Positions 2,723 to 59,935 of a DNA stretch of 64,000 bases are shown here, piece after piece. Position numbers and translations under genes: made by a program. Origin of the DNA: Escherichia phage vB_EcoM_VR26. The stretch lies in sequence record NC_028957.1. One strand, 5' to 3'. The notes beneath the pieces were generated by a model. That model saw only the letters and a list, made by a program, of their open reading frames with translations. It searched no databases and was not told the DNA's origin. The stretch's first letter is position 1. Each line of letters begins with the position of its first letter.

Positions 2723-2972
2723 TTTCCAATTAATACACCGTACAGAGGTTCATGAGAAGACTTGAACTTGATGGGCTTATAGGTAATAGTACCTTCATTT
2801 TCTGCTTTAATACGAGCGGCTTCAAATTGAAGCATCATCTCATTTTTGTCAGATTTAATCTTATCAAAATCCGTCGAACTCGTCATTCATACGCCCTCTT
2901 AAACCTTTTCGTATTCGTCGTTCAATCTATTAAAAATCCGGATGTTCGTCATTCATTAACCTTCTCCAAATC

Positions 2973-3176
2973 CTACCATCGCATCCACCACTTCTTAAGC
3001 TGATGTGAATCTACCCAAACCTTGACTACAGGCTCAATCTGAAAAATACCATCAGACTGACGGCCAATCATTTTGTATTCGGTTTCGGTCTGCTTAATAC
3101 AGATATTACCATATGAGCGAAGTCTGAAAGCGGCTCCAACAAGAAGCCGTTTAAAAGGTTTATTTACTAATGCCAT
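2973..3176 (-). CDS. hypothetical protein (67 aa)
   Basis: ORF track; co-oriented with early genes; overlaps next ORF start. Confidence 0.35.
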   Translation of the reverse strand: MALVNKPFKRLLVGAAFRLRSYGNICIKQTETEYKMIGRQSDGIFQIEPVVKVWVDSHQLKKWWMRW

Positions 3177-3471
3177 TTACGATTTCCCAAATTTGCTTGC
3201 GAGTAGTTTCCCACATCAACTTAATCAGGTCTTCCGTAACTGGTTGGCGGTAAATTCCACGCAGTTTAACTAAAGCATATTTGTATGCTTCAAAATTGTT
3301 TTCCAGCACTGCCCCTTGAGCATGCTTATTCAGTCGTTCAATTTCACGAGCATTCTTTTTCAGAATCTTTGCTGCCTGGCTGGTAGCTTCGAGTGCGTTC
3401 GCTTCTTCGAGACGTTCCTGTGCTTCTTCAATCTGCTTATCGGTCAGTTGAGAAATATCTGGAGCTTGCAT
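3160..3471 (-). CDS. hypothetical protein (103 aa)
   Basis: ORF track; co-oriented, tight spacing with flanking ORFs. Confidence 0.45.
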   Translation of the reverse strand: MQAPDISQLTDKQIEEAQERLEEANALEATSQAAKILKKNAREIERLNKHAQGAVLENNFEAYKYALVKLRGIYRQPVTEDLIKLMWETTRKQIWEIVNGISK

Positions 3472-3472
3472 A

Positions 3473-3724
3473 TTAATCCTTGGGAGTTAACTCAATTGTA
3501 AAATATAGATTAGCATTATCCACATGATAACGGTAATCAACGTTATTATCCGGTGAAGTAAATTCCAGATTCCGGACGTTTAAAGGGTCGATATCAATTG
3601 GAAGACCTTTTATGTCTCGCAGATAAAGTTTAATGAAATATGGGAGCGCTGTAAAGTCTTCCTCGATTTTATCTAAAAAATCGGTAATATCAAATTGATG
3701 TTCCATATAAAAAATCCAAATCAC
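3473..3724 (-). CDS. hypothetical protein (83 aa)
   Basis: ORF track; immediately downstream of gene 55. Confidence 0.45.
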
Positions 3725-4247
3725 CTTCTTTATCTTTGGCGCTCTTATCAGACCCTGGCGCTTTAACTAAGGAGGATTCGTACTGTGTCATTTTGTCATA
3801 GATGTCCTGGATAAATGTTTCGTCAGCCAGAGCCACCATATCGTCGTCACGTGAATCATACACGTTATGGACGAAGTAGCTATATTTCTTTGCCATTTCT
3901 TTACGTTCTTTTTTGATACGCTGAACGAAAGCATTGAAGCAAGCCATTGTTATGTAAGCATGTGGATTATCGTATTTTGTTTCGTCGAAGTTATGAAGAC
4001 CTTTTATTGCGGCCTCAATTCCGTCCGCTATCATTTCCTGCTTCCAAGATTGGGTATATCCTGAAAAGTTGAAACGTTTAGACAGACCTTCGGCTATAAG
4101 CATAATCGCCAGACCAATAACATCGTTCTGGCGAATAATTTTATTTGGGTCGGTATTTGCATTCAGCTTCTGTTTCCACTCCGAAATAGCTTTCAGAAGC
4201 TCTTTATTATTTACATAGTTATTCTTGGTTAATTTAATTTCGTTCAT
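3690..4247 (-). CDS. 55: Late-transcription sigma factor gp55
   Basis: 185 aa; NYVNNKELL...[36 protein letters not shown]...[21 protein letters not shown] matches T4 gp55 almost residue for residue from memory. Confidence 0.95.
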
Positions 4248-4295
4248 ATCGCCTCACTTAGTATATGAATATTATATCATCCTTGATACAAAGCG

Positions 4296-4562
4296 TTAGC
4301 GAAGTAAACAGTAAGCCTGGAAGACCTTCTCCATAATTGCCTTAAATTCGTGGATGTCAATATAAGGGATAACCTCAGCATCACTAATGAATTCCATCAG
4401 CCGGTCATGCTCTTCACGATAATAAGCTTCATTCAGCTTGCTGATATGAGATTCCCAGGAGCCATACCCTTCTGCACGTGGGAAGAATGTTATTTTCATG
4501 AATTCATCCACCCAAAACGTTCCCAGGTCCTGGACGGATATCATTGTATGATTGATGTGCAT
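4296..4562 (-). CDS. hypothetical protein (88 aa)
   Basis: ORF track; co-oriented small early ORF. Confidence 0.45.
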   Translation of the reverse strand: MHINHTMISVQDLGTFWVDEFMKITFFPRAEGYGSWESHISKLNEAYYREEHDRLMEFISDAEVIPYIDIHEFKAIMEKVFQAYCLLR

Positions 4563-4828
4563 CAGTGCACCAATTGGGCAGCTTCTAAAACATCATCAAG
4601 CTTATCAAACTGGTCAACATAATCAATCCCGCCAACTTCATCTTTGGCATACAACCAATACTGCTTGAATTCGTATTCAATAATAAAGTGGTCGCCTTCA
4701 ATCTGGAGGGCACCAACATCATTAAATTGAACTGCATAACCCGTAAAGCGGATATCATTCAGGAGTTCTTCTTTCATAGTAATCATTTCCAGGTTTTTCT
4801 CATAATGAGAGAGTTTAATTTTAATCAT
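4562..4828 (-). CDS. hypothetical protein (88 aa)
   Basis: ORF track; 1-nt overlap with downstream ORF. Confidence 0.45.
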   Translation of the reverse strand: MIKIKLSHYEKNLEMITMKEELLNDIRFTGYAVQFNDVGALQIEGDHFIIEYEFKQYWLYAKDEVGGIDYVDQFDKLDDVLEAAQLVH

Positions 4829-5169
4829 TTCGCGCCCTTAACAATTTTCAGGTCAACAAAACCTTTCTTACGCTGGGAATTCATGCGCTTGATGGCTTTG
4901 TCAGAAACTTCTTTGTTTTCACGTGGGAGCGGCAGACCAAACGCTACTACATCAAATTCATTCAGGATATACTGGACAAGGCTTTCACGAATACGCGCTT
5001 TACCCATTGTCTGACCTTCTGCAATAATCAACTTCTGTACATCACCTTCCCACTGGTCCAGAATCTCAGGAGTAACGAAACCAGATTTCATCAGAGTGTT
5101 AACTTTAGCAAATGCGAAATTAGCGATGGTGTTAGTGATAGATGCAGTCATGATATATTCCTCAGTCAA
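4825..5169 (-). CDS. hypothetical protein (114 aa)
   Basis: ORF track; 4-nt overlap with downstream ORF. Confidence 0.5.
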   Translation of the reverse strand: MTEEYIMTASITNTIANFAFAKVNTLMKSGFVTPEILDQWEGDVQKLIIAEGQTMGKARIRESLVQYILNEFDVVAFGLPLPRENKEVSDKAIKRMNSQRKKGFVDLKIVKGAK

Positions 5170-53918: not shown

Positions 53919-54583
53919 TGAAAACATTAACGAATAAAAAGGCTGGAGTAATTTCCCGCCATGCTAGTTACTTAGAATTTCAAAATACATCAAAAAATAT
54001 TACGGCTGTGATGGGTCAACGAGCAATCGGCGGCCCATCCGCAACACAGACAACCGAAGGTATTTTTTACCCAACAGTTCAGAGCGCAATAGATGATATT
54101 GCGTTTCGATATGAGCTTCCGGTTGGTAGTGTAATTACTAATACAAATAACCTTTCTCCAGCAGCAATCAGTCAGTCGGATAAAATTAAATTTACCGGGT
54201 CTATTTCTGGTGCCGGGGTCGGTGATACTGTTTTATTTTTCATTTTTGGTATTCCGGTTGAGGTTATTGTTGGGGATTCAGCCGTATTGGTTGCTTCCAA
54301 GGTTAACGATGCTTTGTTGACGGCTGTTGCTGATAGTTTAATCGTGTCAAGCTCTGCAATTGATAGTGTGGACCAGTCTATATTAAATATTACATATAAC
54401 GACTATCAAAACCATAATTTTGCACCTTTCGCTCAATATGGTTGTACGCTTAGCCAGACTATTACACAGCAACCGCGCGGCGGTTATGGTTCCTGGGAAT
54501 ATCTTGGAACTTCAACCCAGACGTTATCCGGCGGCTCAGCAAATGGCACAATTTCACTTTATCATTATAAGCGAGTATCATAA
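53918..54583 (+). CDS. 11: Baseplate wedge protein gp11
   Basis: 221 aa, T4 gp11 position and size. Confidence 0.9.
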   Translation: MKTLTNKKAGVISRHASYLEFQNTSKNITAVMGQRAIGGPSATQTTEGIFYPTVQSAIDDIAFRYELPVGSVITNTNNLSPAAISQSDKIKFTGSISGAGVGDTVLFFIFGIPVEVIVGDSAVLVASKVNDALLTAVADSLIVSSSAIDSVDQSILNITYNDYQNHNFAPFAQYGCTLSQTITQQPRGGYGSWEYLGTSTQTLSGGSANGTISLYHYKRVS

Positions 54584-56133
54584 TGACAATGCCAAACACA
54601 CTAAAACACATTAGCGACAAATCAGAATATAAATCATTCGACCCGGCGGGAACGGCTTTCCCGTCGACTGTTACCAACGTACAAGAGGCTTTAGGGTCTC
54701 TTAATAAAATTGCATTAGATGGATTTATCCCAGCCGCTTCGGAAACGACACCAGGGCTCATCAGACTGGCCACCACGCAAGAAGTTCTTGATGGCATTAG
54801 TCCAGACTCTGCTGTGACTCCAGCGACCTTAAAAGCTCGTTTAGACATCCCTACGCAAGCTACCGAAACTTATGTAGGTATTACCCGTTATGCCACCGAT
54901 GCAGAAGCAATCGCAGGGACCGTAACCGATGCAGCTATTGTTCCATCTTCATTAAAAGCAACAATTGATAATGTTTTTACTGTTCGTGTCGGTACCGAAA
55001 ATAACCTGGGTGTTCTTCGTATTAGCACCGAGGATGCAGCTTTAGCTGGTACAGATGATACAACCGCCATGTCTCCGTTGAAAGTTGCTCTGGCAATTGG
55101 CAAAGCAACCGCAGCGCTTCCGACTTATTCAACTGCCACACAAACTGTTTCCGGTTTAGTGCGAATTGCTACAAATGCTGAAGTACAAGCAGGAACTCTG
55201 GGTGACGGCGTGGCAATTTCTCCGGCTGGTTTAAATGCTCGTACAGCAACACAAGACCGCGCAGGGATTATTCGTCTGGGTAATCAGTCAGAAATCAATA
55301 ACAGTGCTGATGGTGTTGCGGTAACTGGTGCAACTCTTAATGGTCGTGGTGCTACAACCGATATTCGTGGTGTCGTTAGATTAACTACTCAGGCTGGGAT
55401 TGCTCCTGGTGGTGATGGAGCTGGAGCCCTGGCCTGGAACGCAGATGTAATTAACACTCGAGGTGGTCAACGAATTAATGGAAGTCTTTCTTTAGATTAT
55501 ATTTCCACTGGCAATATTGACTCCACTACGGCTCATATGGGCGGTCAATTACTTTCTACACAGCGTTATGCTTCCGAACGTGTTCCTGTCGGAACCGTGA
55601 TGATGTTTGCAGGTGATAGCGCTCCTCCTGGTTGGATTATGTGTCATGGCGGTACTGTTAATGGTGACCAATTCCCTGACTATCGAAATACTGTTGGGGC
55701 TCGTTTTGGTGGTGACTGGAATAACCCTGGCGTTCCTGATATGCGCGGCTTATTCGTTCGTGGCGCAGGTACAGGCGGTCATATTCTGAATAGCCGTGGT
55801 CAAGATGGTTATGGTAAAGACCGTTTGGGTGTTGGTTGTGATGGAATGCATGTTGGTGGTGTTCAGGCACAACAAATGTCATACCATAAACACGCTGGTG
55901 GCTGGGGTGAATATCAACGCAATGAAGCTCCATTTGGTGCGTCAGTTTATCAAGGTTATCTTGGTACCAGAAAATATTCAGACTGGGATAATGCTTCGTA
56001 TTTCACAAATGACGGATTTGAATTAGGTGGTGGTCGTGATTCTCTCGGAACGTTAAACCGTGAAGGCCTTATCGGATATGAAACAAGACCTTGGAATATG
56101 TCTTTAAACTATATTATTAAAGTTCACTATTAA
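54583..56133 (+). CDS. 12: Short tail fibre protein gp12
   Basis: 516 aa; repetitive Thr/Ala-rich shaft; T4 gp12 position. Confidence 0.9.
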   Translation: MTMPNTLKHISDKSEYKSFDPAGTAFPSTVTNVQEALGSLNKIALDGFIPAASETTPGLIRLATTQEVLDGISPDSAVTPATLKARLDIPTQATETYVGITRYATDAEAIAGTVTDAAIVPSSLKATIDNVFTVRVGTENNLGVLRISTEDAALAGTDDTTAMSPLKVALAIGKATAALPTYSTATQTVSGLVRIATNAEVQAGTLGDGVAISPAGLNARTATQDRAGIIRLGNQSEINNSADGVAVTGATLNGRGATTDIRGVVRLTTQAGIAPGGDGAGALAWNADVINTRGGQRINGSLSLDYISTGNIDSTTAHMGGQLLSTQRYASERVPVGTVMMFAGDSAPPGWIMCHGGTVNGDQFPDYRNTVGARFGGDWNNPGVPDMRGLFVRGAGTGGHILNSRGQDGYGKDRLGVGCDGMHVGGVQAQQMSYHKHAGGWGEYQRNEAPFGASVYQGYLGTRKYSDWDNASYFTNDGFELGGGRDSLGTLNREGLIGYETRPWNMSLNYIIKVHY

Positions 56134-56141
56134 GGACCAAA

Positions 56142-58310
56142 ATGATTAATAAACTCAGTCTCAAAGAACTGCCGTATAGCATCGGTATTCCAGACGAAGG
56201 TCAACAGAGAATTCGTTGGATACAAAACGGTGATTGTATGACTGCGGCCAGTACCAAATATGGTCATGATGGTAATTTGAACGCCGCCGCGGTTGGCGTT
56301 CAAACAAACGTAGATACACTCGACGACAACTCAAATACATCTAAAGAAAAAATCAATGAAATTATTGATAACGTCAATAATATCCAGGAAGCTTTGGATA
56401 TAACAACTAACACGGAAGTTGTTAAGCAAATTGAAAAAAACCGTACGGATATTCTTGACCTGGACGAACGTCAATTTAATACCGAATTGCTGTCAAGCGA
56501 AACATCAGAAGGTCTTAAAACGTTAAAGGAAGATGTTGGTGTTTATGACCCATTAACCGATTCATATTATCGCACTGTTCGTAATGACCTTGTATGGATT
56601 AAAAATGAATTAGGTCAGTATGTTGACCAAGATATAAATGGTCTACAGGTTATTGGTAATCCATCAAGAGGCATGAAACGTCGCATCATCGATAACAGTT
56701 CGGCTATTGTTGCTCATGGAGTTCGTATTAAGACTCTTGAGGATAATTACCATGATTCTGATGTTGGTTCTCTTAACGTAAAAGTAATTAAAATTCGCGA
56801 AGAATTGGGTGAGTCGACTTTAGCAGTAGGTAAACCAGCTGTATTTGTTCGACTGAATACTCTTGACGACAAAGTAGTCGAAATTGACAAAGATATTGCC
56901 AATATTCAAGAAGATATCGGTTTTGGCACCGGGCTTGCAATTACAACTCGCGTTGAAAATCTTGGTGGACGTGTTTCGGTCAATGAAACAGATATTGCGA
57001 ATATCAAACCAAGACTCACTAAGGTTGAAGCTGATATCGGCACCGCTCTGGAACCATTAACAATTAATGGTCGAATCAGTGCTTTGCGCTCGGATGTTAA
57101 TGGATTGCAGGCTGTTGTTGGTCAGGATTCAAGTTCAGGTTTGCGCGGAACCACTGCATGGCTTTCTCAGAGAATCGGTACAGAGCAATCTCCGGAGCCA
57201 AACACCATCACGTATAAGTTGAATGCAACCACTGCGCTGGCTAATGAAACTGTATCAGGTCTCCAGGATGTGCAGGCTGAAATTGGTACAAATAGCACTG
57301 GTATGAAAGGTTCTATTTTGACTTTAACTAGCCAGATGAACGGGACTAACCCTAACGGTGCTACTGTGGCTGAACGTGGTGTTCTTCCAGTCGTAATTAA
57401 CTTGGATATGTTGATGGCATCCAAGCTGAACGATGCACCGTTGGACAACAAGTTATACGGCCGCAAGCAAGGTGCCTGGTCTGAAATTATCGATTCCACA
57501 ACCGAAGTTGATGCAGTTAAAGCTTCATTGGTAACAACTGATGGACGCGTAACAACATTAACTGGTCGTGTCGATGATAATGATACAACAATCAGTTCGT
57601 TAGATACTCGTTATGGTGCATTGAACACTTCCGTTACGAATGTTAAGGCAGATGTTCTCGCTCTGCAAAATAAAGATACGGAACAAGATGGTCGAATTAC
57701 TGCATTAGAAACGAAGGATACGACTGTTGATGGTAAAATAACCGCATTGGAAACTAAAACATCTACGACCGATGATGATGTCACTGCTTTAGCTTTAGAC
57801 GTTAGCAATGTTGAAGGTGAGCTGGTTACCATTAAAGCAAATATCGAAACAAACAAAGGCGGTTTGGTAACCTTGACCGGTCGAATGACTTCGGCGGAAG
57901 GGGAAATCACTGCAATTAAACTCGATACTGCAAAAATTACACCGTTAACTGCTCGTGTTTCATCAAGTGAAAACGAAATCACTGCAATTAAACTCGATAC
58001 TGCAAAAATTGCGCCGCTAGACGAAAGAGTTACAACAGCTGAAGATGAAATCAATACGATTAAAATCGATACTGCAAAAATTGCACCGTTAACTACTCGT
58101 GTGACAACTCTTGAAGGTACAGTAACTCCGCTCCCTGGTCGCCTGGATGCAGCCGAGACGAAGATAACTACTTTAGAAGGTAAAGTATCAGCCTTAGAAA
58201 CGGAGCTCGCCAAAAGGCCTCCTGTCGCTCCTGTGGCTGATGGTCTCCCTTACGTGCTTGTTGATAATGCATGGGTTCTTTTGTCTACATTCGTGACTGT
58301 TGGACCATAA
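56142..58310 (+). CDS. wac: Fibritin (whisker) Wac, expanded coiled-coil form
   Basis: 722 aa; YRTVRNDLVWIKNELGQYVDQDINGL as in T4 fibritin; C-terminal foldon-like DGLPYVLVDNAWVLLSTFV. Confidence 0.9.
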   Translation: MINKLSLKELPYSIGIPDEGQQRIRWIQNGDCMTAASTKYGHDGNLNAAAVGVQTNVDTLDDNSNTSKEKINEIIDNVNNIQEALDITTNTEVVKQIEKNRTDILDLDERQFNTELLSSETSEGLKTLKEDVGVYDPLTDSYYRTVRNDLVWIKNELGQYVDQDINGLQVIGNPSRGMKRRIIDNSSAIVAHGVRIKTLEDNYHDSDVGSLNVKVIKIREELGESTLAVGKPAVFVRLNTLDDKVVEIDKDIANIQEDIGFGTGLAITTRVENLGGRVSVNETDIANIKPRLTKVEADIGTALEPLTINGRISALRSDVNGLQAVVGQDSSSGLRGTTAWLSQRIGTEQSPEPNTITYKLNATTALANETVSGLQDVQAEIGTNSTGMKGSILTLTSQMNGTNPNGATVAERGVLPVVINLDMLMASKLNDAPLDNKLYGRKQGAWSEIIDSTTEVDAVKASLVTTDGRVTTLTGRVDDNDTTISSLDTRYGALNTSVTNVKADVLALQNKDTEQDGRITALETKDTTVDGKITALETKTSTTDDDVTALALDVSNVEGELVTIKANIETNKGGLVTLTGRMTSAEGEITAIKLDTAKITPLTARVSSSENEITAIKLDTAKIAPLDERVTTAEDEINTIKIDTAKIAPLTTRVTTLEGTVTPLPGRLDAAETKITTLEGKVSALETELAKRPPVAPVADGLPYVLVDNAWVLLSTFVTVGP
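57903..58118 (+). repeat. Three tandem 72-nt (24-codon) repeats inside wac
   Basis: gaaatcactgcaattaaactcgatactgcaaaaatt... recurs at 57903, 57975, 58047 (EITAIKLDTAKI(T/A)PL...). Confidence 0.7.
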
Positions 58311-58313
58311 CAA

Positions 58314-58334
58314 AAGGGCTTCGGCCCTTTTTTC
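58314..58334 (+). terminator. Rho-independent terminator after wac
   Basis: AAGGGC-ttcg-GCCCTT followed by TTTT. Confidence 0.65.
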
Positions 58335-58335
58335 G

Positions 58336-58343
58336 TATAAATA
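58336..58343 (+). promoter_or_regulatory. Late promoter TATAAATA for gene 13
   Basis: Exact TATAAATA 18 nt upstream of ATG. Confidence 0.6.
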
Positions 58344-58361
58344 CAGTAAAGAGGAAAACAT

Positions 58362-59300
58362 ATGGCAACTGAATCATACAACCCGAAACAATTAAAAGAT
58401 GCAATCCTTCGTCGTCTTGGTGCTCCAATCACGAATATCGAAGTTACGACCGACCAAGTCTATGATTGCATCCAGCGTGCATTAGAATTATACGGTGAAT
58501 ATCATTATAATGGATATAACAAAGGTTATCAGGCTTTTTATATCGGTCATGATGAAGTTTCACAACAGAAATTCCGCGATGGTGTTTTCGATTTAAAAGG
58601 ACGTAATATTTTTGCAGTAACGCAGATTATTCGTACTAACGTCGGTTCATTAACTTCAATGGACGGACAAGCCACATATCCATGGTTTACAGATTTCGTT
58701 CTGGGCCTTGCCGGGATTAACGGTGGGATGGGTAGCTCGTGTAATAGCTTTGGTCCAAATGCTTTTGGTGCAGACCTTGGTTATTTTACACAGCTTATGC
58801 AATATCGTTCAATGATGCAAGACCTGATGGTTCCGCTTCCGGATTACTGGTATAACGATGATACCGAACAACTTAAAATTATGGGCAACTTCCGTCAGGG
58901 GGATGTGATTGTAATTGAAGTTTATACCAAATCGTATAACGGTGTGGATTCAATGGTTGGCAATACAGCTGGTTATGGTTTTGCCTCGGCTGATTGTGAT
59001 AATCCGTGGAATGCCGGTGCACAGTGGGATAACCCGGCGCGCAGAATAAGCGGTATGAGAGCTGGTGAGGACCTTGGACTTCAAGATGGTGCATACAACA
59101 ACCGTTGGGTGAAAGACTATGCCACGGCGCTTGTTAAGGAAGTTAACGGCAACGTATTGGCTAAACACCAAGGGATGATGATGCCAGGTGGAGTTACGGT
59201 CGATGGTGTTCGTTTAATCGAAGAAGCTCGTATGGAAAAAGAACGTCTCCGCGAAGAACTTGACCTGCTGGATGCACCGACTCCTATATTGGTGGGCTAA
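58362..59300 (+). CDS. 13: Neck protein gp13
   Basis: 312 aa; [39 protein letters not shown] matches T4 gp13. Confidence 0.95.
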
Positions 59301-59935
59301 TGGCTACATATTATAGACTTTATGTGTCGACATTTGAAACATCTAATGGGGTAATGGTGTATGGCGGTAAACGTCATTCACCATATGAAGATTTTAAAGC
59401 AGATAGTTATTTTGGGTCGGGTACTATTGTTAAACGAGCTAAACAAAAATATGGAAGAAAATGTTTAGTCGATATTACCTGGTCTAAACCTTTTGAATCC
59501 CCTGCTCTATTAAAGGAAGCCGAGGCTTTACTAGTCAGTGAACTTTTAGAAAGTTTTGATAATTGTGCAAATTTACACCCAACAGGGGGAGGTGGCCCGG
59601 AAGGTTATAGTCGTCCAGAAGATTCCCCTGCTTTTGGTAAAAAGAGAACAGCAGAATCAAGAAAACGAATGTCGGAAGCCGCAAAACAAAGGGAATGGTC
59701 CGAAGAGGGATTAAAACGTCGTAAAGAGGCAACAGCTCGAATGTGGATTGATTTTAAGGACCGACATCCTGATTTTTCTGATGATAAAAATCCGGCCGCA
59801 CGTAAAATTATTACCGGCGACCTAGAATTTTGTACCGGAAGAAAATGTGCAGAATATTATTCGATAACTCCGGCTGCAGTCATTTACAGATGTAAAAGTA
59901 CAGCCGAAAAATGGAAATTATGGAATTATGCGTAA
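59300..59935 (+). CDS. GIY-YIG-like (Seg-like, possibly degenerate) homing endonuclease inserted between 13 and 14
   Basis: [22 protein letters not shown] and [18 protein letters not shown] align with the Seg-like ORF at 44426; NUMOD3-like [13 protein letters not shown]. Confidence 0.6.

Follow-up and report, generated by a model that had tools for sequence, protein, structure and literature searches.

The 64,000-nucleotide (nt) stretch of Escherichia phage vB_EcoM_VR26 analyzed here (NC_028957.1; "the window") carries wac, a fibritin gene whose open reading frame (ORF; 56142..58310, + strand) starts with ATG and has a product, Wac, of 722 amino acids (aa). We conclude with high confidence that Wac is a JS98-type fibritin with two foldon-like motifs and that the spacer between these motifs ends in a variable-number tandem repeat (VNTR) of a 72-nt unit, altered by in-register recombination or slippage. 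The window gene is the already annotated wac of VR26 and encodes a known long fibritin of the JS98 type. An exact-sequence look-up returned 100% identity to YP_009214008.1/AIZ02808.1 ("fibritin neck whisker", vB_EcoM_VR26), and a phmmer search of the PDB matched T4 fibritin (2bsg_A, 487 aa; E 1.2e-87). Both results agree with the wac/fibritin identity proposed in an earlier reading made from the letters of this DNA (the sequence-only reading), while ORF translation and the PDB entry yield the lengths it gave, 722 aa for Wac against 487 aa in T4. VR26 is a low-temperature T4-like coliphage (PMC8307508). In the phage collection it is closest to members of Gaprivervirus, and megablast of the gene found no identical record there, the best match being the wac of TH15 (97.3%).

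In our reading, aa 1 to 450 of Wac amount to a complete T4-like fibritin closing in a foldon-like beta-hairpin motif, followed by a coiled-coil spacer of ~250 aa and then by a second, terminal foldon. The spacer consists of old internal duplications, and at its end is the VNTR of the 72-nt/24-aa unit, with copy number changing by whole in-frame units via in-register unequal recombination or possibly replication slippage. The features concerned, with the evidence for each, are as follows.

56142..58310, + strand: wac, encoding a 722-aa fibritin (neck whisker/collar fiber) of the JS98 type with two foldon-like motifs; ORF, protein identity, phmmer, and gene order.
56142..57386, + strand: N-terminal neck-attachment domain and segmented coiled-coil shaft (aa 1 to 415); collinear with T4 fibritin residues 4 to 420.
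57246..57491, + strand: T4 C-terminus-like region (aa 369 to 450), with the internal foldon-like motif APLDNKLYGRKQGAW at its end (aa 432 to 446); Pfam, BLASTP, AlphaFold2 (AF2), and motif scan.
57504..57902, + strand: spacer part A (aa 455 to 587), a predicted alpha-helical coiled-coil module; alignments, tblastn, and AF2.
57686..57758, + strand: two tandem 42-nt/14-aa units (DTEQDGRITALETK / DTTVDGKITALETK); spacing of 42 and 74% identity in a repeat search.
57903..57974, + strand: 24-aa repeat unit 1 (aa 588 to 611), EITAIKLDTAKITPLTARVSSSEN; Tandem Repeats Finder (TRF) and repeat search, with counterpart unit 1 of TH44 (TH44_u1) at 88% nt identity.
57975..58046, + strand: 24-aa repeat unit 2 (aa 612 to 635), EITAIKLDTAKIAPLDERVTTAED; counterparts MN01_u5 (92% nt) and TH44_u2 (89% nt).
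58047..58118, + strand: 24-aa repeat unit 3 (aa 636 to 659), EINTIKIDTAKIAPLTTRVTTLEG; counterparts MN01_u6 (92% nt), TH44_u4 (89% nt), and the YenP8/RZ unit (86% nt).
58119..58310, + strand: last coiled-coil segment and terminal foldon (aa 660 to 722; motif PVADGLPYVLVDNAW plus VLLSTFV, aa 697 to 718); BLASTP, PDB, AF2, and Foldseek.

The 72-nt array and its copy-number alleles

TRF placed an array at 57903-58108 (period 72, 2.9 copies, 78% matches, score 263), the sole tandem repeat scoring at least 80 in the whole 64-kb window, and a repeat search found three gapless copies beginning at 57903, 57975, and 58047, spaced exactly 72/72 nt. The three 24-residue repeats described in the sequence-only reading are tandem at the nucleotide level, the point on which that claim depended. 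Identity at a lag of 72 was 0.757, versus 0.327 ± 0.038 in 20,000 codon shuffles (maximum 0.486, z = 11.3). At the protein level exactly three copies were recovered, with scores of 89 to 102 against the unit consensus compared to a maximum of 41 in 300 shuffles. While these results demonstrate the tandem structure, the 72-nt units are not near-identical as had been claimed. Pairwise identity between the window units was 74 to 79% at the nucleotide level and 63 to 71% at the amino acid level. The 5′ half of the unit (EITAIKLDTAKI) is conserved, with identical stretches of 20 to 36 nt shared among 5′ halves and with units 1 and 2 identical over just their first 36 nt, and the 3′ halves are 56 to 69% identical. 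We also considered whether the whole spacer consists of recognizable copies of the 24-aa unit and rejected this, as scores elsewhere in Wac were ≤22, against the shuffle maximum of 41.

Comparison of wac length among close relatives (~91 to 97% nt identity over wac), the check named in the sequence-only reading, resolved into differing numbers of units, and two shorter alleles are given alongside.

TH15: Wac of 674 aa, one 24-aa unit.
Window (VR26): Wac of 722 aa, three 24-aa units.
TH44: Wac of 748 aa, four 24-aa units.
MN01: Wac of 789 aa, five full 24-aa units and one truncated unit of 17 aa.
YenP8 and RZ: Wac of 541 and 543 aa, one 24-aa unit, without the 133-aa module (spacer part A).

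All of these alleles are in frame, and they demonstrate a copy-number polymorphism of head-to-tail units between near-identical genomes, as expected of a VNTR. The high interunit identity of recently expanded arrays was not found. Unit 3 is the unit kept in all alleles, those with a single unit included.

The clearest trace of how unit number changes comes from TH15, whose only unit is the same as window unit 1 for nt 1 to 49 and as window unit 3 for nt 51 to 72, with a private base at position 50. Such a chimeric unit is the product expected of an in-register crossover that deletes two units. We therefore read TH15 as a direct footprint of in-register unequal recombination, and the clearest recent event in the array as a contraction. 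Positional counterparts in different phages (unit 1 with TH44_u1, unit 2 with MN01_u5, and unit 3 with MN01_u6) are closer to each other, at 88 to 92% nt identity, than are the paralogous units within the window, and the three-unit array therefore predates the split of these phages. By this comparison the array is old, has recombined occasionally, and did not expand recently. Its units are demonstrably mosaic in their 5′ halves: window units 1 and 2 show 100% identity there, the positional counterpart TH44_u2 departs from them at 4 synonymous sites, and one 5′-half allele is common to MN01_u2, MN01_u4, and TH44_u2. This pattern indicates conversion-like exchange between units.

Two further alleles appear to record deletions. 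The truncated 51-nt/17-aa unit of MN01, EITAIKLDTAKIATVED, lies mid-array (MN01 wac locus 4762-5142) and corresponds to the in-frame loss of 21 nt, encoding PLTTRVA, from between two positions flanked by GCA/GCT. In YenP8 and RZ, a repeat unit directly follows the opening residues of the long spacer (TEVDAVKA, or TEIDAVKA in IME08) at the junction TEIDA|IKLDTAKI, which crosses a shared GCA(A/G)TTAAA stretch; this fits the short YenP8/RZ allele being a deletion derivative. Slipped-strand replication and unequal homologous recombination would leave the same sequence outcome. Since T4-type phages are highly recombinogenic, we favor recombination. The proposal of the sequence-only reading, expansion by slipped recombination, thus held in part. 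The unit numbers of 1, 3, 4, and 5 plus a truncated unit, together with the TH15 chimera, show that in-register recombination between units shifts copy number; the expansion itself was not borne out, given the age of the array, the contraction in TH15, and the small share of the extra length that the repeats explain.

Architecture of Wac and the source of its extra length

The gene order gp11-gp12-wac-gp13-gp14 is syntenic in annotated relatives. Upstream of wac lies gp12 (Pfam domains S_tail_recep_bd, gp12-short_mid, and Collar), and downstream lie gp13, a 211-aa homing endonuclease gene, and gp14 (Pfam T4_neck-protein), which places wac where a fibritin gene is expected, between gene 12 (short tail fiber) and genes 13/14 (neck). 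Public annotation of wac is inconsistent. Some records start upstream and overlap gp12, giving 558 or 560 aa versus 541 or 543 aa (e.g., YenP8, locus 2950-4626), the product is named "hypothetical protein" in MN01, PSD2001, and P479, and the feature under the ESCO10 wac match is called "phospholipase".

The architecture of the protein is demonstrated by several lines of evidence. In the phmmer alignment, T4 residues 4 to 420 align to Wac aa 5 to 415 and T4 residues 422 to 485 to aa 653 to 719. The conserved N-terminal neck-attachment domain (~50 aa) of fibritins is present, with aa 5 to 84 matching the N termini of T4 fibritin and mini-fibritin (1ox3, E 1.9e-14), and its identity is 65 to 70% even to VR7 and Dhakavirus. 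A long segmented alpha-helical coiled-coil shaft is likewise present, as judged from collinearity with the T4 shaft, generic coiled-coil Pfam matches, and AF2 helices with heptad periodicity over aa 452 to 689. The Pfam model of the T4 C-terminal region, Fibritin_C, matches aa 369 to 449 (model positions 3 to 90 of 93, E 4.7e-18), well before the end of the protein. BLASTP against the T-even RB33 fibritin aligned Wac aa 374 to 446 to RB33 residues 377 to 475 (E 8e-16), with NDAPLDNKLYGRKQGAW opposite a 17-residue RB33 stretch, and Wac aa 650 to 719 to RB33 residues 417 to 483 (E 4e-10, 39% identity), meaning that internal and terminal regions both align to the same T-even C-terminal stretch. 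The terminal foldon also matched PDB 1avy (E 1e-4), and a motif scan of Wac found PLDNKLYGRKQGAW at aa 433 and PVADGLPYVLVDNAW at aa 697.

Structure prediction gave a similar picture. The AF2 model of aa 416 to 722, computed as a monomer, had a mean predicted local distance difference test (pLDDT) score of 80.8, with beta-hairpins at aa 439 to 448 (internal motif) and aa 704 to 713 (terminal motif) and a long helix from aa 452 (452 to 616 and onward, with short breaks) at pLDDT 86 to 98 through the spacer. Foldseek returned T4 fibritin fragments and foldon constructs as best PDB matches, with a root mean square deviation of 0.8 to 1.3 Å over 25 residues. E values were only ≥0.12, a consequence of a short foldon and a remainder made up of a single helix, and we took this result as supporting evidence only. 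By sequence and predicted structure, then, Wac ends in a C-terminal foldon, which in T4 is a beta-hairpin trimerization motif, and this terminal foldon is likely the trimerization nucleus. That it is retained was correctly noted in the sequence-only reading, which had counted a single foldon and so missed the internal motif at aa 432 to 446.

Two T4-like foldon motifs in one polypeptide, separated by a coiled-coil-patterned spacer of variable length, are the marks of the JS98 type, and Wac has both, with an intermotif spacer of 250 aa. Among 148 fibritin sequences scanned, several of them duplicated between the locus set and database matches, 57 had two foldon-like motifs, with separations of 36 to 322 aa. 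Serratia phage CHI14 fibritin (584 aa) showed four foldon-like motifs (P.D...Y......W) at residues 467, 496, 528, and 560, a spacing of ~30 aa that reflects tandem multiplication of the foldon itself and not of coiled coil.

Dhakavirus fibritins also have spacer part A, which the short Gaprivervirus alleles of YenP8, RZ, and VR7 lack. AF2 models it as a single continuous helix (pLDDT 86 to 98), and its hydrophobic periodicity is 7.0. Block-wise, the spacer is 65 to 69% identical in amino acid sequence to those of JS98, IME08, VR5, dhaeg, MX01, and UP19, and tblastn searches with it returned Dhakavirus wac genes (JS98, JS10, IME08, VR5, MX01, dhaeg, and others) at 53 to 62% over the whole length, with 55 to 62% for the JS98 spacer. 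Coiled-coil matches to P22-type tail-needle gp26, tropomyosin, HMMR, and crescentin were also returned; we judged these to be generic similarity, not functional homology. Within part A, the further ETKDTTVDGKITALETK-like repeats noted in the sequence-only reading are present as two copies spaced by 42 nt, at 57686-57716 and 57728-57758; another, weaker copy lies far downstream of part A, at 58175. Both 14-aa copies occur in all Dhakavirus sequences examined, and the doublet appears to be an old duplication, with two copies in every long-spacer fibritin compared.

Wac exceeds T4 fibritin by 235 aa, of which the two extra 24-aa units contribute 48. The tandem array therefore explains only about a fifth of the extra length. 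The bulk is the ~133-aa coiled-coil spacer together with a duplicated last coiled coil and foldon, an old module shared with Dhakavirus.

Mosaicism of the locus and alternative explanations

Both wac and gp12 vary far more than the genes beside them. Between VR26 and VR7 (54583-58310 compared), amino acid identity is 97% for gp13, 59% for gp12, and 43% for the wac shaft. When Dhakavirus is considered as well as VR7, gp13 is 88 to 97% identical beside a hypervariable shaft at 42 to 46%. The last ~160 nt of wac are 88 to 94% identical at the nucleotide level to VR7, SP18, and CJ20, while the rest of the gene was unmatched there by megablast. These differences indicate mosaic exchange with a breakpoint inside wac, in agreement with the published view of the locus.

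Given this mosaicism, the long spacer might have been gained laterally from a Dhakavirus-like phage as a wac 3′ module that may or may not have included the repeats, with the short VR7, YenP8, and RZ alleles ancestral. The greater similarity of the spacer than of the shaft to Dhakavirus (65 to 69% versus 42 to 46%), the contrast within the genus between the divergent shaft and the conserved last 160 nt, and the modular swapping described at this locus by Letarov and Krisch (PMC3797505) are all in keeping with such a transfer. However, at 65 to 69% identity to any Dhakavirus sequence no recent donor is visible, the TEIDA|IKLDTAKI junction makes the YenP8/RZ allele read as a deletion derivative, and constraint could equally explain the higher conservation of the spacer. 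We consider lateral gain possible but unlikely. Far less credible is that the copy-number differences arose by collapse or expansion of the repeat during assembly. Assembly does typically go wrong in repeat arrays, and the 722-aa allele was found on one contig. Yet the array is only 216 nt long and its units differ at 21 to 26% of positions, such that reads are placed unambiguously; seven independent contigs carry the 674-aa allele and five the 748-aa allele, which speaks against assembly artifacts; and the units have clear positional counterparts across genomes, with every allele in frame.

A different question is what the units form. The hydrophobic core falls at unit positions 2, 5, 12, 15, 19, and 26 (26 being position 2 of the next unit), which agrees with three heptads and one 3-residue discontinuity, at Ala-Pro-Leu, each unit restoring the register. 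By analogy, this pattern is consistent with the segmented coiled coil of T4 fibritin. The units could instead make up a repeated structure, perhaps beta-rich, that binds ligands or surfaces; the whisker would then have a receptor-recognition role, and its avidity would depend on copy number. Every unit has a proline, hydrophobicity in the array is dominated by a period of 2.4 rather than 3.5 or 7, AF2 pLDDT is lower there (58 to 75), and the spacer has weak matches to P22-type tail-needle proteins (PDB 4lin, E 1.9e-9; phrog_1219, E 1.3e-14). We find this improbable, since AF2 still gives helices with short breaks, the core positions accommodate heptads with a 3-residue insertion, the tail-needle matches are to trimeric coiled-coil regions with the others generic, and T4 fibritin itself is a segmented coiled coil with loops.

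Several observations nevertheless weigh against the double-foldon fibritin with a recombining VNTR that we prefer. Units that share only 74 to 79% identity cannot recombine very often, and slippage is only a possible mechanism. An allele with exactly two units was not seen among the sequences read, which took in 40 of 45 cluster members, 15 of them listed. The low pLDDT in the repeats leaves the positions of helix breaks within the unit uncertain, and a trimeric coiled coil is suggested by analogy with T4 fibritin and by an AF2 model of the monomer. The C-terminal 74 aa alone had no Pfam Fibritin_C match at E ≤ 0.01, so the terminal foldon rests on BLASTP, PDB, and structural evidence. Finally, the low-temperature phages VR7 and VR26 differ in having a short and a long spacer, respectively, and length is therefore not obviously tied to the low-temperature phenotype.

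Other features of the neighborhood were examined in the same window. The 211-aa homing endonuclease gene (59300-59935, + strand; phrog_314, E 3.9e-30; weak NUMOD3) is inserted between genes 13 and 14 and overlaps the start of gene 14 by 8 nt. In YenP8, RZ (96.7% aa identity in RZ), and Dhakavirus MX01 (58.7% aa) this site is filled as well, but it is empty in MN01, VR7, JS98, IME08, VR5, dhaeg, and UP19, a distribution that we read as a mobile element polymorphic for presence and absence. The 51 nt that separate the wac stop from the start of gene 13 include an exact T4 late-promoter consensus, TATAAATA, at 58336-58343 (+ strand); TATAAATA sites number 8 in the window, not above chance (at least 8 in 21 of 100 shuffles). 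A scan for sigma-70 promoters and terminators over 55900-58500 found fewer sites than in shuffles and did not suggest an embedded regulatory element. An antisense ORF of 200 aa (57611-58213, − strand) was rejected as a gene: it did not match any Pfam family, and it spans the repeat region, in which reading frames remain open, here probably owing to the scarcity of TTA, CTA, and TCA among the sense codons.

Possible roles of spacer length and comparison with known systems

The protein is already in RefSeq, and the double-foldon, variable-spacer architecture of the JS98 type is already published. The addition made here is modest: the known variability of spacer length is resolved into discrete, in-frame changes in unit copy number, with a recombination footprint in TH15, and the sister genera Gaprivervirus and Dhakavirus vary different units at the same position. 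The length of wac may be usable as a phage-typing marker, and the units could help in engineering fibritin/foldon scaffolds of defined length and in testing whisker length against long-tail-fiber retraction. A fully helical unit, at ~1.5 Å per residue, would add or remove ~3.6 nm of fiber with the end domains undisturbed, and on the same basis the whole spacer may be ~35 nm long. Spacer length may affect how long tail fibers are handled. We can also speculate, with considerable doubt, that the spacer acts as a tunable recombinational "length dial" before the terminal foldon, stepping by 24 aa in VR26-like Gaprivervirus and by 31 aa in Dhakavirus and adjusting whisker reach by ~3.6 to 4.6 nm per step, with the internal foldon-like motif serving as a hinge or second tail-fiber contact. 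If so, it might match long-tail-fiber geometry or shift an environmental-sensing threshold.

A loose parallel for such variation exists outside phages. In streptococcal M proteins, in-frame repeats of a coiled-coil rod vary by unequal recombination, shifting fiber length while the end domains stay fixed. These proteins are unrelated to fibritin and belong to a host rather than a phage setting.

Compared with T4 fibritin (gpwac; PDB 2bsg, 3j2o, 1aa0, and 1avy), Wac shares a collinear N-terminal domain and shaft, a homologous last coiled coil and foldon, and the position of its gene between genes 12 and 13. Whereas T4 fibritin has one foldon and no spacer, Wac has two counterparts of the T4 C terminus (aa 369 to 450 and aa 650 to 719), ~250 aa apart, and its internal foldon-like motif lacks the WVLLSTFL tail. 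T4 fibritin is a segmented coiled coil with loops that helps long-tail-fiber attachment and holds the fibers retracted under adverse conditions, and both T4 and JS98 fibritins are reported to fold into trimers self-sufficiently using only foldon motifs (Letarov and Krisch 2013, PMC3797505). Within the genus of VR26, the short Gaprivervirus fibritins of VR7 (528 aa), YenP8 (541 aa), and RZ (543 aa) also have two foldon-like motifs, including a terminal foldon, and those of YenP8 and RZ are 93 to 100% identical to the window Wac outside the spacer. They differ in having spacers of 51 to 69 aa, without the 133-aa module and with at most one 24-aa unit.

The closest architectural match is the JS98-type fibritin of Dhakavirus (JS98, JS10, IME08, VR5, and MX01), described as a T4-like fibritin with a foldon-like motif, a variable coiled-coil spacer, and a second, terminal foldon (Letarov and Krisch 2013, PMC3797505, citing Latypov et al. 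2007). Wac has the same succession of N-terminal domain, shaft, internal motif, variable spacer, and terminal foldon, and the two groups have in common the 133-aa module, the 14-aa doublet, and one 24-aa unit, although their shafts are only 42 to 46% identical. They differ in the unit that varies. VR26-like Gaprivervirus vary the EITAIKLDTAKIAPLTTRVTxxEx unit, from 1 to 5 full copies plus one truncated copy, whereas Dhakavirus keep one 24-aa unit and vary a downstream 93-nt/31-aa unit, KITTLETGLAAVKVESDKVAGINTRLGTAEG, from 1 to ~5 copies. Accordingly, Dhakavirus lengths of 689, 720, and 751 aa correspond to one, two, and three 31-aa units, and TRF gives a period of 93 in IME08. In both groups, spacers vary in length by whole tandem units at the same position.

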